Below are positions 40,601 through 48,968 of a DNA stretch of 64,000 nt, one piece after another; positions within the stretch are counted from its first letter, which is position 1; every line of letters begins with the position of its first letter. Made by a program: the position numbers and the translations under genes. Where the stretch lies: positions 1,364,001 to 1,428,000 of the forward strand of contig CM120642.1 of assembly GCA_051362555.1 (NCBI GenBank), given 5' to 3'. A model generated the notes under the pieces. It saw nothing but the letters and a program-made list of their open reading frames with translations. It was not told the DNA's origin and searched no databases. Origin of the DNA: Lingula anatina (Eukaryota > Animalia > Brachiopoda).

Positions 40601-43600
40601 GATAAAATAAGAGATCAATTATTGGATAAAATACCACAATTATATGTCACATATTTGGCTAAAATAAAAAAATATATAAGTCATATATTAGGGTAAAATG
40701 AAAAAGAATCATGGTCATATATTTGGCTTACATGTAGCAAGAATTTTGTTAATGTGTTTGGGTCGAAAAAAATTAGACACTGATGAAATTGGCAAACCAG
40801 GTGTGAAACCAACAAGGCAGGAAACCTGTCAAATGTACAGCATTAAAAGGAAAAAATGAACCACAAATCAAGAGCCAAAGGGCGCAGACCTTCTCCAAGG
40901 ACTTTAGACAGATAAATTGTATTAGTTGAGAGCACATTCACCCACAATGCTTAAAGGCCATTGTCACCATTACCAAACAAGTATTTCAGCTATGCCAGTT
41001 CACATATCACTTATTCCATTACCACAGTTCTGAAAGTGCTAAGTAACGTTTTGTTTGCAACTGGCTGAAAGTAGTCAAAAATAATTGTAAGGGTCATTTC
41101 ACAAAAAGATTGAACATTAGTCATGTCAAAAACACCACTGCAAATATTACACAAAATGCGTTGTAACTCAAATGTTCACTTTTTGTGGAATGACACAAAT
41201 GTATGGAAAGCATAGGGTATAACTGGCCAGATCTGCTCAAAATTTACTTTATGGCATGAAATTGCTCCATCATTTCTTCAAACTGAAGCAATCACAAATT
41301 TGGTCTTTTTAATCAGTCAATTTGATTATTTTTTAACTATTGATGAGAGCTGAAAAAGCGGCAACCCTCTTGTACTTTAGCCGGGATGAGTTTTCATTTT
41401 CATGTGTTGATTAATTAATAACTTTGTGGGTTTTAAAAATTTTTTGTTTTTTAATTAAAAGACTGTAATTGTTCCTACTGCTACATTAGCAATTTATTAT
41501 GCTGCAGTCTTCCCAGACAATTAAAATACCATCCCTGTCAAACCCAAAAGGCTGTGTGGCAATTGCTGCATTATACACTTAGACTCTGTTCACATGAAAA
41601 ATCTATTTTCTAAAACTCTATTTTCTATTTGCGGTATCTTGTGATCACTCCGAGCGCAGCCGAGAATTAATTACAGCTTTGAAAGTAACTGGCTCACGCT
41701 GCCAGTAATTACGCCGCGGGGTATACAGGGCACAGACGGTGATCACAAGATACCGCAAATGGAAAATAGATTTTTAGAAAATAGACTTTTCATGTGAACC
41801 GAGCCTTATATTTATCACATTGACATTTGAATTACCTGCCTACTAGTAATTGACGTCACTTAATGCTAATGTAATGTTCTGATAAGCAAAAATTAAAGAC
41901 AAGAAAGAAAGTTTGCTAATTCTTTTAATGGTTTTAATGGTTACATAACATATTAAAGAATCCTTGGATGCAAGAGACAATGTTGCCATTCAGTTTCAGC
42001 AGTCATGGGTTCTTTGAACCACAATATTGACACAACCAAGATAGTTTTTAGAAATTAGAAATTTAAATTCTAATAATTACATCATTTTTTAAAATTAAAG
42101 AAATAAAGGTAGAATAGGCATAAGTTTCTTATTCTTAAGAAACTGAATAATTTGCCCCTTGTTTGCAAAAATAACACAAAGATTGAACTAAGTATGAAGT
42201 TTTCTTTATATTTCAAACAAAACAAACATTACTCTAATAACAGAAAAATCTCACTTCAAAACAAATGCGTAGGTAAACTGTAAATGGATGAAATCAATTA
42301 ACAAAATGATTCAATCAATTATATTTACAAAGCAACCATGATTTCATCTTTTTGAAAGTTAATACTCAGCATTCAATGATAGGCAATTTCAGAAGAAAGA
42401 ACTATGTACACTGTGATCACCTTACTGTTACTGATACAGCTTTCAAACAACCATCAACATGTTTTAGGAGTAAATAACACACAAATATCAACAAAAAGAC
42501 TTCTACTCTTAGGTGAATATAAATATTCAAGACCAATATAAATAATTTCAATATAAATTTGACTTCAATATATATGCAAAGTGTCCACCTCTTAAGTCTA
42601 AACAAGCTGAAAATTTCAAATTCTTTACTTTTTGAAAAGGGCATGGTGTAACCATGTCTGTCATTTTAAGCCAGACAAGATATCCCAGTGCTTTCTGGTT
42701 TCAAATACTTGCTGAAAATTTCAATGTCCAGCATTATATGTTTGATTCCCATTAACATCATCAAGTTCATTCCATAAAGATGATGACTCATAGTTTGTCC
42801 AAAATGTAAAAAAAGCATGTCTGTAATGAAAAAATCCCCTCTCCAGAACCTGCCCACTTATTAGTTAAAAGTGTCTACAAATGTCAACAGTACACAACTT
42901 TGAAATACACAGAGGAAGAAATAATAGATGATAACAACTCTAAATGCAATGTACAGTCTGGTATCCACACATCAGATTTAGGTATCCGTGGACACATCTA
43001 GAACCAAAATGTCCAAAACTAGTAAATTTCTGAGGTTTTCTAGTTATCCACACAAGTTAGATAATGTAATGCATCATCTAAAGCAGAATGTAGTCTTTTG
43101 CTCATTTTATAAGAGCCAAGAGATTCCCTTCACCATCTGATATCAGTTCTGCAGCACTTAAACAGACACCAACCAATGCTTATAAAAATTCTTAGACGAT
43201 TTGAAAATATTAAGATATAAACTGTCTGTGGAATTATTAATTCAACAATCCAGACACCAATCAAGCATTGGATTTGGGATCAGAACTCTCATAGAACTCC
43301 GGATGAGATTCCTCATGCCTAGTACAGTGGACCTTTTGAGTGAAATCCTTGGGACAGTACCTGCACTTGTACGGCTTCTCTTTAGTATGGATCCTCATAT
43401 GGCGTTCACGCTCAGACTTACACATAAATGGCTTCAGGCAGTGATCACATGGAAAGCTCCCCACACCAGTGTGGACGACTTCATGGCGAGTCAAGTGCTG
43501 CTTTTGTCGAAATGTCTTGTCGCAAAATTTGCATGAAAAAGGTTTAACATATTCTCTGGTGTGGGTTTCCTCGTGTTGCCTGCAATATGCCCTGCACCGA

Positions 43601-48968: not shown

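Follow-up and report, generated by a model that had tools for sequence, protein, structure and literature searches.

The CUX1/CASP locus (ceh-44/cone-1 in C. elegans) encodes two proteins with common N-terminal exons and distinct C-terminal domains: a nuclear, DNA-binding CUT homeodomain factor and an ancient membrane-traffic (Golgi) protein. This layout has been conserved between worms and humans, and in neurons a splicing switch via UNC-75/CELF has been proven (PMC11789633). The reason why such two-protein loci persist is described as an open question even for CUX/CASP (PMC11789633). In TMPO/LAP2alpha and ZNF451-L2a, one large 3' exon within an intron replaces the downstream domains of the host and leaves the original isoform intact; both exons derive from the ORF of a DIRS1-like retrotransposon, the fingers of ZNF451 being part of the host, and in the authors' survey, human genes whose domains are mutually exclusive in this way number only nine (PMC4495291). 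In CSB-PGBD3, an acceptor-led, in-frame, intronless ORF in a host intron serves as alternative 3' exon; PGBD3, a piggyBac transposase flanked by terminal repeats, has a Met of its own 7 nt past the acceptor and a poly(A) site ~130 nt past the stop, and its protein is proven and abundant (PMC2268245). Internal promoters besides the fusion are described for both CSB-PGBD3 and ceh-44 (PMC2268245, PMC11789633).

Here, we describe MTMR2 of the brachiopod Lingula anatina in a window of 64,000 nucleotides (GenBank assembly GCA_051362555.1, contig CM120642.1, positions 1,364,001 to 1,428,000; positions below are counted from the first letter of the window). We consider it likely that the donor of exon 2 is spliced either to exon 3, for the phosphatase, or to an acceptor 949 nt away that opens a zinc-finger (ZF) exon, and that the ZF RNA, which likely ends within the intron, would yield a 931-aa, 16-finger predicted DNA-binding protein from the MTMR2 start.

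With CUX1/CASP the arrangement has in common one locus, shared N-terminal exons and unrelated C-terminal domains; unlike CUX1/CASP, it consists of one large C2H2 exon in an enzyme host, and any regulated switch or conservation in other animals is conjectural. As in TMPO/LAP2alpha and ZNF451-L2a, a single big nested exon substitutes for host domains, whereas the fingers are here the guest and no transposon origin was seen. A likeness to CSB-PGBD3, drawn in the earlier note, holds for the architecture only, that is, for the layout of an acceptor-led nested exon; the ZF exon has no transposase, no terminal inverted repeats flanking it, no Met near the acceptor and no AATAAA shortly past the stop. 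CUX/CASP and TMPO/LAP2alpha are closer analogues than CSB-PGBD3. In KRAB-ZNF genes and in Drosophila lola and mod(mdg4), all fingers are placed in one 3' exon joined to upstream exons that encode a KRAB or BTB effector domain, and every alternative is a DNA-binding module. The Lingula fingers likewise all lie in what appears to be a last exon joined to upstream exons; in contrast, the upstream exons here encode the N-terminal end of a lipid phosphatase, and neither effector was found by Pfam on the ZF exon. Two proteins from shared first exons are known, if rare, and new are the myotubularin host and a C2H2 guest that lacks its own usable start.

Host gene and nested exon

The host gene, MTMR2, lies on the minus strand, as do all of its features given below. 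Exon 1 is identical to the N-terminus of RefSeq myotubularin-related protein 2 isoform X4, and this protein maps exon after exon onto 48968-22640. Its Pfam domains are GRAM (92-197) and Myotub-related (204-540), the catalytic Cys motif is present, the closest family member is MTMR2, and the top solved-structure match is human MTMR2 (1lw3, E 9e-287). The 5' UTR or start region common to both isoforms is placed approximately at 48969-49157; read depth is near zero past the bin ending at 49157, and 6 of 20 molecules end at 49005 in run X8. Exon 1 (48783-48968; 186 nt, 62 codons, Ser-rich), placed by the joined frame, the RefSeq identity and the protein alignment, is shared by both isoforms and carries a 13-residue motif conserved in mollusc, annelid and nemertean MTMR2. 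Exon 2 (46738-46819; 82 nt), also shared and placed by read joints and the joined frame, encodes the opening residues of the PH-GRAM match and ends in phase 1 at a GT donor, the choice point. Intron 2 (46737-40371), which contains the ZF exon, is followed by exon 3 (40276-40370), the competing phase-1 acceptor of which leads to the phosphatase exons down to ~22640.

An optional in-frame cassette exon between exons 1 and 2 (48510-48545; 36 nt, 12 aa) is seen in read joints and in RefSeq isoforms X3 and X4; its use is about equal to its skipping in runs X4 and X5 and is rare or absent in the other six, and no counterpart was found among 14 other aligned MTMR2 proteins. At the exon-3 acceptor, a tandem array of 33-34 nt units (40356-40728) crosses the splice site, so that several similar AG-containing units precede the true acceptor; this array could weaken the recognition of exon 3 relative to the ZF acceptor. 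An 8-letter replacement at 40022-40275 in run X4 was rejected as a micro-exon and taken as an allele of the first codons of exon 4.

The coding part of the ZF exon (43261-45788; 2528 nt) opens at an AG acceptor and comprises a lone finger, a Gln/Val-rich spacer, a 7-finger array, an 8-finger array and a stop, as delimited by its frame, by Pfam and by reads on the MTMR2 strand in all stranded runs. Its frame of about 843-844 codons without a stop is the only long one in the window, and the chance of a stop-free frame of 843 codons is ~5e-22; no second ZF-like stretch was found elsewhere in the window, and no family was found by an Rfam search over 20000-52000. With the 949-nt GT..AG intron of the ZF isoform (45789-46737) removed, 186 + 82 + 2528 = 2796 nt are joined in one frame with a single stop, at the end, coding for 931 aa and 16 C2H2 fingers; the coordinates, phases and lengths given for this in the earlier note were all correct. 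The phase match of exon 2 and ZF exon is weak evidence, since chance agreement is 1 in 3.

The stop-to-stop frame begins at 45795, with an in-frame stop just upstream of the acceptor. That no in-frame ATG occurs until about 100 codons, past an intact finger, had also been claimed beforehand and was borne out: the first in-frame Met is codon 108 (45465), its context is without +4 G, and the two earlier ATGs are out of frame. The first C2H2 finger (45724-45786, by frame analysis), intact, lies upstream of this Met and is therefore translatable only from the start of MTMR2.

RNA joints, isoform share and 3' end

Of nine runs of species-labelled raw reads, eight RNA runs from three studies were used (run X6 was left out), each sampled at ~6-30% of its reads. 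The junction 46738->45788, named in the earlier note as the test, was found in all eight, with GT..AG ends on the MTMR2 strand and 26 reads (7, 4, 4 and 1 in runs X1, X4, X7 and X3; 5, 1, 1 and 3 in X2, X5, X8 and X9); the opposite outcome described there, no such reads and a ZF mRNA from its own start within 45790-46730, did not occur. The joint reads begin at 15 distinct places for 16 reads in X1, X4, X7 and X3 and at 9 for 10 reads in X2, X5, X8 and X9, and ZF reads are oriented like MTMR2 reads in the stranded runs. Reads of runs X7-X9 are mostly 90-99% alike to the window, which indicates that the joint is used in divergent animals too.

The 949-nt intron is nearly readless: depth is 0 over 45882-46637 in four of four runs (X2, X5, X8, X9) and at most 0.84 over 45816-46543 in X1, X4, X7 and X3. 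Among the joints and loose ends listed, no other one falls at 45788, that is, no other 5' partner of the ZF exon. In X1, X2, X7 and X9, the number of joint reads is comparable in size to the depth at the start of the ZF exon; run X3 has a single joint read versus a depth of ~9 in the 5' bin of the exon, which would allow for internal starts.

The competing joint of exon 2 to exon 3 was found in 73 reads (19, 6, 26 and 22 in X1, X4, X7 and X3); in X2, X5, X8 and X9, for which exon 3 lies outside the aligned stretch and counting differs, 74 loose-end reads carry exon-3 sequence (25, 13, 20 and 16). By joints, the share of the ZF form is 16 of 89, or 18% (95% CI 11-28%); by depth, taken over 7 ZF bins versus 5 positions in downstream MTMR2 exons, it is 0.14, 0.25, 0.11 and 0.13 in four runs. 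The ZF form thus makes up about 10-25% of the output, and the exon 2 to exon 3 form, the phosphatase, about 75-90%. Two phase-1 acceptors compete for the exon-2 donor, and the near one is used in a minority of transcripts. Per run, the ZF share ranges from 0.04 to 0.40 with small counts (heterogeneity p=0.045 over four runs, p=0.09 over all eight). The locus had been said to switch between a lipid phosphatase and a 16-finger factor: one promoter and shared exons 1-2 do feed either set of exons, but 'switch' is too strong a word, as both forms are found together in all eight bulk samples. Given this co-occurrence, a regulated switch is possible.

Coverage continues over the entire ZF exon and then for 0.7-1.1 kb past the stop, dropping at 42100-42600, and is about zero from there (~42100) to 40700 except at a repeat. 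The 3' UTR of the ZF isoform is therefore placed at 42100-43260 from the depth tables and a hexamer scan, its end being approximate (42100-42600 by run). Candidate poly(A) signals are variant hexamers only (TATAAA at 42210, AATATA at 42212, AGTAAA at 42629), the first AATAAA lying at 41498, 1.76 kb beyond the stop. No poly(A) tail was seen among the loose ends listed, so the terminal nature of the exon is inferred; the joints listed for runs X1, X4, X7 and X3, in which both regions are covered, include none that leads from the ZF exon or its tail on to exon 3. Just past the stop, ~40 nt (43213-43253) are common to several other transcripts, with differing loose ends on both sides (X4, X5, X8, X9), and may be a short repeat or a stretch of 3' UTR that related genes share.

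Finger arrays, selection and relatives

In the order of translation, the ZF exon has one finger, the motif KVVKIxFKY, the Gln/Val-rich spacer, fingers 2-8 (44059-44634), KVVKIxFKY again and fingers 9-16 (43303-43956), the arrays being placed by frame analysis. All 16 fingers have all four ligands, the arrays are of the form C-x2-C-x12-H-x3-H, and several fingers are joined by TGE(K/R)P-type linkers. Nine Pfam rows were obtained at E<=1, from zinc-finger families only (zf-H2C2_2, E 1.7e-57); the domains of the two isoforms, zf-C2H2 families only versus GRAM plus Myotub-related, are mutually exclusive and unrelated. The spacer (20% Gln, 14% Val) holds Gln/Val/Thr-rich internal repeats with periods of 72 and 168 nt (44855-45406, by repeat analysis). 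Fingers 11-16 match fingers 2-7 in register (identity at an offset of 9 is 6.3 of 17 free positions, versus 4.0 for all pairs; permutation p=0.001), which indicates that an old internal duplication enlarged the exon. Both copies of KVVKIxFKY fit the short RVxF pattern, a PP1-docking consensus; chance matches to patterns this short are frequent.

The shared part had been characterized as a Ser-rich N-terminus; Ser-rich it is, though not solely so, as it includes the first ~10 residues of the Pfam GRAM match. Since the splice point falls ~10 residues into this match, the ZF form is without a working MTMR2 domain. Of 17 proteins that share the N-terminus, 15, all lophotrochozoan MTMR2, were aligned, and each has a Ser-Pro motif followed by a Ser run. 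The motif may have a phospho-regulatory role; no paper was found in a literature search on MTMR2 Ser58.

Among the read variants listed in the ZF frame, 16 of 22 are synonymous, versus 25% expected with transitions weighted 3:1 (p=4e-6) and 33% with transitions only (p=2e-4); the variants counted are the best-supported ones listed in two tables. This excess is an indirect sign that a protein is made from the exon. In exons 1-2, all 9 variants listed are synonymous, 6 of 6 in the exon 1 part. Upstream of Met108, 2 of 3 are synonymous, too few to prove translation there. Run X8 has a 1-nt insertion in a six-base homopolymer at 45448 in 4 of 10 reads, which is either slippage or a frameshift allele; if it is a real allele, the frame shifts after finger 1.

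No close relative of the ZF form was recovered in the protein and metagenome collections searched. With ZF residues 1-380 as protein query, 0 of 2101 candidates matched; exon 1, compared with longer proteins, matched 1 of 204 candidates, MTMR2 itself, and no ZF-bearing relative. An exact look-up of the Met108-started protein found it absent from the protein collection. The best 150 phmmer matches among 1.84 billion representatives are generic long ZF proteins of 29-46% identity, with no orthologue; ESM Atlas, queried with the ZF frame, gave generic C2H2 clusters only; and a metagenome scan gave 0 of 151 stretches. None of 17 proteins sharing the MTMR2 N-terminus (91 candidates) has zinc fingers, and the ZF form of Lingula itself is likewise absent from that collection; this query favours MTMR2 forms, because 10 residues of exon 3 were included.

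The protein cluster holds RefSeq isoforms X3 and X4 only, so isoforms X1 and X2 of the locus, with the accessions immediately preceding XP_013412821.1, must exist or have existed. As RefSeq usually numbers the longest isoform first, these could be ZF forms, of 943 and 931 aa; they may already model the ZF isoform, which would then have been machine-predicted beforehand. No paper was found naming the four RefSeq accessions, and no report of a zinc-finger terminal, nested or chimeric exon in a myotubularin or in MTMR2 was found in the papers searched, which include few subscription titles.

Proposed mechanism, alternatives and neighbouring features

In the mechanism that we propose, use of the near acceptor would be coupled to 3' end formation 0.7-1.1 kb past the stop, making the ZF exon terminal. 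Translation from the MTMR2 ATG would then give a 931-aa protein predicted, from its tandem C2H2 arrays, TGE(K/R)P-type linkers and Gln-rich spacer, to be a nuclear transcription factor. The ZF exon would not be fully translatable without the host start. The shared 89 residues, without phosphatase function because GRAM is cut after ~10 residues, would mainly supply the promoter, the start codon and the conserved Ser-Pro motif. As to origin, a promoterless ZF last exon may have been copied into intron 2 with an in-phase acceptor, and would have been retained because the host isoform stayed intact.

It appears improbable that the ZF exon belongs mainly to a conventional nested gene that starts by itself, from a promoter or first exon in the intron or from Met108, with the MTMR2 join as a side product. 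The single joint read of run X3 versus a depth of ~9 in the 5' bin speaks for it, as do the internal promoters described besides the fusion for CSB-PGBD3 and ceh-44 (PMC2268245, PMC11789633). The empty stretch 45882-46637 (depth 0 in 4 of 4 runs, X2, X5, X8 and X9), the agreement of joint reads with depth at the exon start in X1, X2, X7 and X9, the lack of any other 5' partner among those listed, the intact finger upstream of Met108 and the context of that Met without +4 G speak against it. The joint could also be real and its product dispensable, with leaky splicing into a decaying ZF copy that at most trims MTMR2 output via early termination. The possible frameshift allele in X8 (4 of 10 reads), the minor share and the failure to find relatives in other species would fit; the 843 stop-free codons, the 16 fingers with all four ligands, the strong synonymous excess and the use of the joint in 8 of 8 runs from 3 studies speak against it, and this reading too appears improbable.

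The least probable reading, to which we give hardly any weight, makes the ZF exon an internal poison exon, the stop codon of which would send MTMR2 transcripts to nonsense-mediated decay. It would agree with the fact that no poly(A) site was seen; against it, no such onward joint to exon 3, be it from the ZF exon or from the tail, is listed where both regions are covered, depth is about zero from ~42100 to 40700 apart from the repeat, and a poison exon has no need of a constrained 843-codon frame. A transposon exon-trap origin was tried and rejected: none of the 9 Pfam rows (E<=1) is a transposase; of the 13 inverted pairs in 40700-47000, those that span the exon reach 71-73% complementarity over 24-30 nt; and the sole strong pair, at 41581-41806, lies wholly downstream of the ZF exon. 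This 226-nt element, the inverted arms of which measure 68 nt (93%), is covered deeply on both strands with numerous loose ends, and is likely a multi-copy MITE-like repeat downstream of the ZF 3' UTR.

The reading preferred here, an alternative terminal ZF exon served by the MTMR2 start, makes this an RNA-confirmed case of a predicted two-protein locus in a myotubularin, with a zinc-finger rather than a transposon guest, apparently absent from the protein collections searched. If it is lineage-specific, it offers a recent snapshot of the birth of a transcription factor that borrowed the promoter and start codon of a housekeeping gene; ZF exons of this kind, without an ATG, may escape annotation. 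A wider reading is doubtful: that a lineage-born, promoterless 16-finger exon captured the promoter, start codon and Ser-Pro motif of MTMR2, and that the splice choice at exon 2 is regulated by cell type, toggling between a phosphoinositide phosphatase and a transcription factor that answer to the same kinase input. The locus would then be a young parallel to CUX/CASP that arose independently, and might exemplify a general way in which zinc-finger genes of invertebrates originate, as last exons in housekeeping genes. The reach of the finding is limited, because it concerns one locus in one animal and function is predicted only.

Further features were noted around the locus. Downstream in MTMR2, one phosphatase-domain exon is present as two paralogous 92-nt copies (36371-36462 and 35419-35510, minus strand); RefSeq isoforms X3 and X4 differ in exactly 6 residues, located in these exons, which are likely mutually exclusive, since a transcript with both would be out of frame. 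A 49-nt minisatellite of 39 copies (24010-25920, minus strand) repeats the last ~39 nt of an MTMR2 exon plus its GT donor along the intron, and so would place dozens of predicted decoy 5' splice sites downstream of the true donor. A BLTP1/KIAA1109-like lipid-transport gene (~49600-62000, plus strand), oriented head to head with MTMR2, starts ~0.6-0.7 kb from the MTMR2 ATG, so the promoter region may drive three products; five of its exon frames match Pfam BLTP1_N in order. A 146-nt satellite (54471-56477; 13.8 copies, 92% identity) lies in an intron of this gene.
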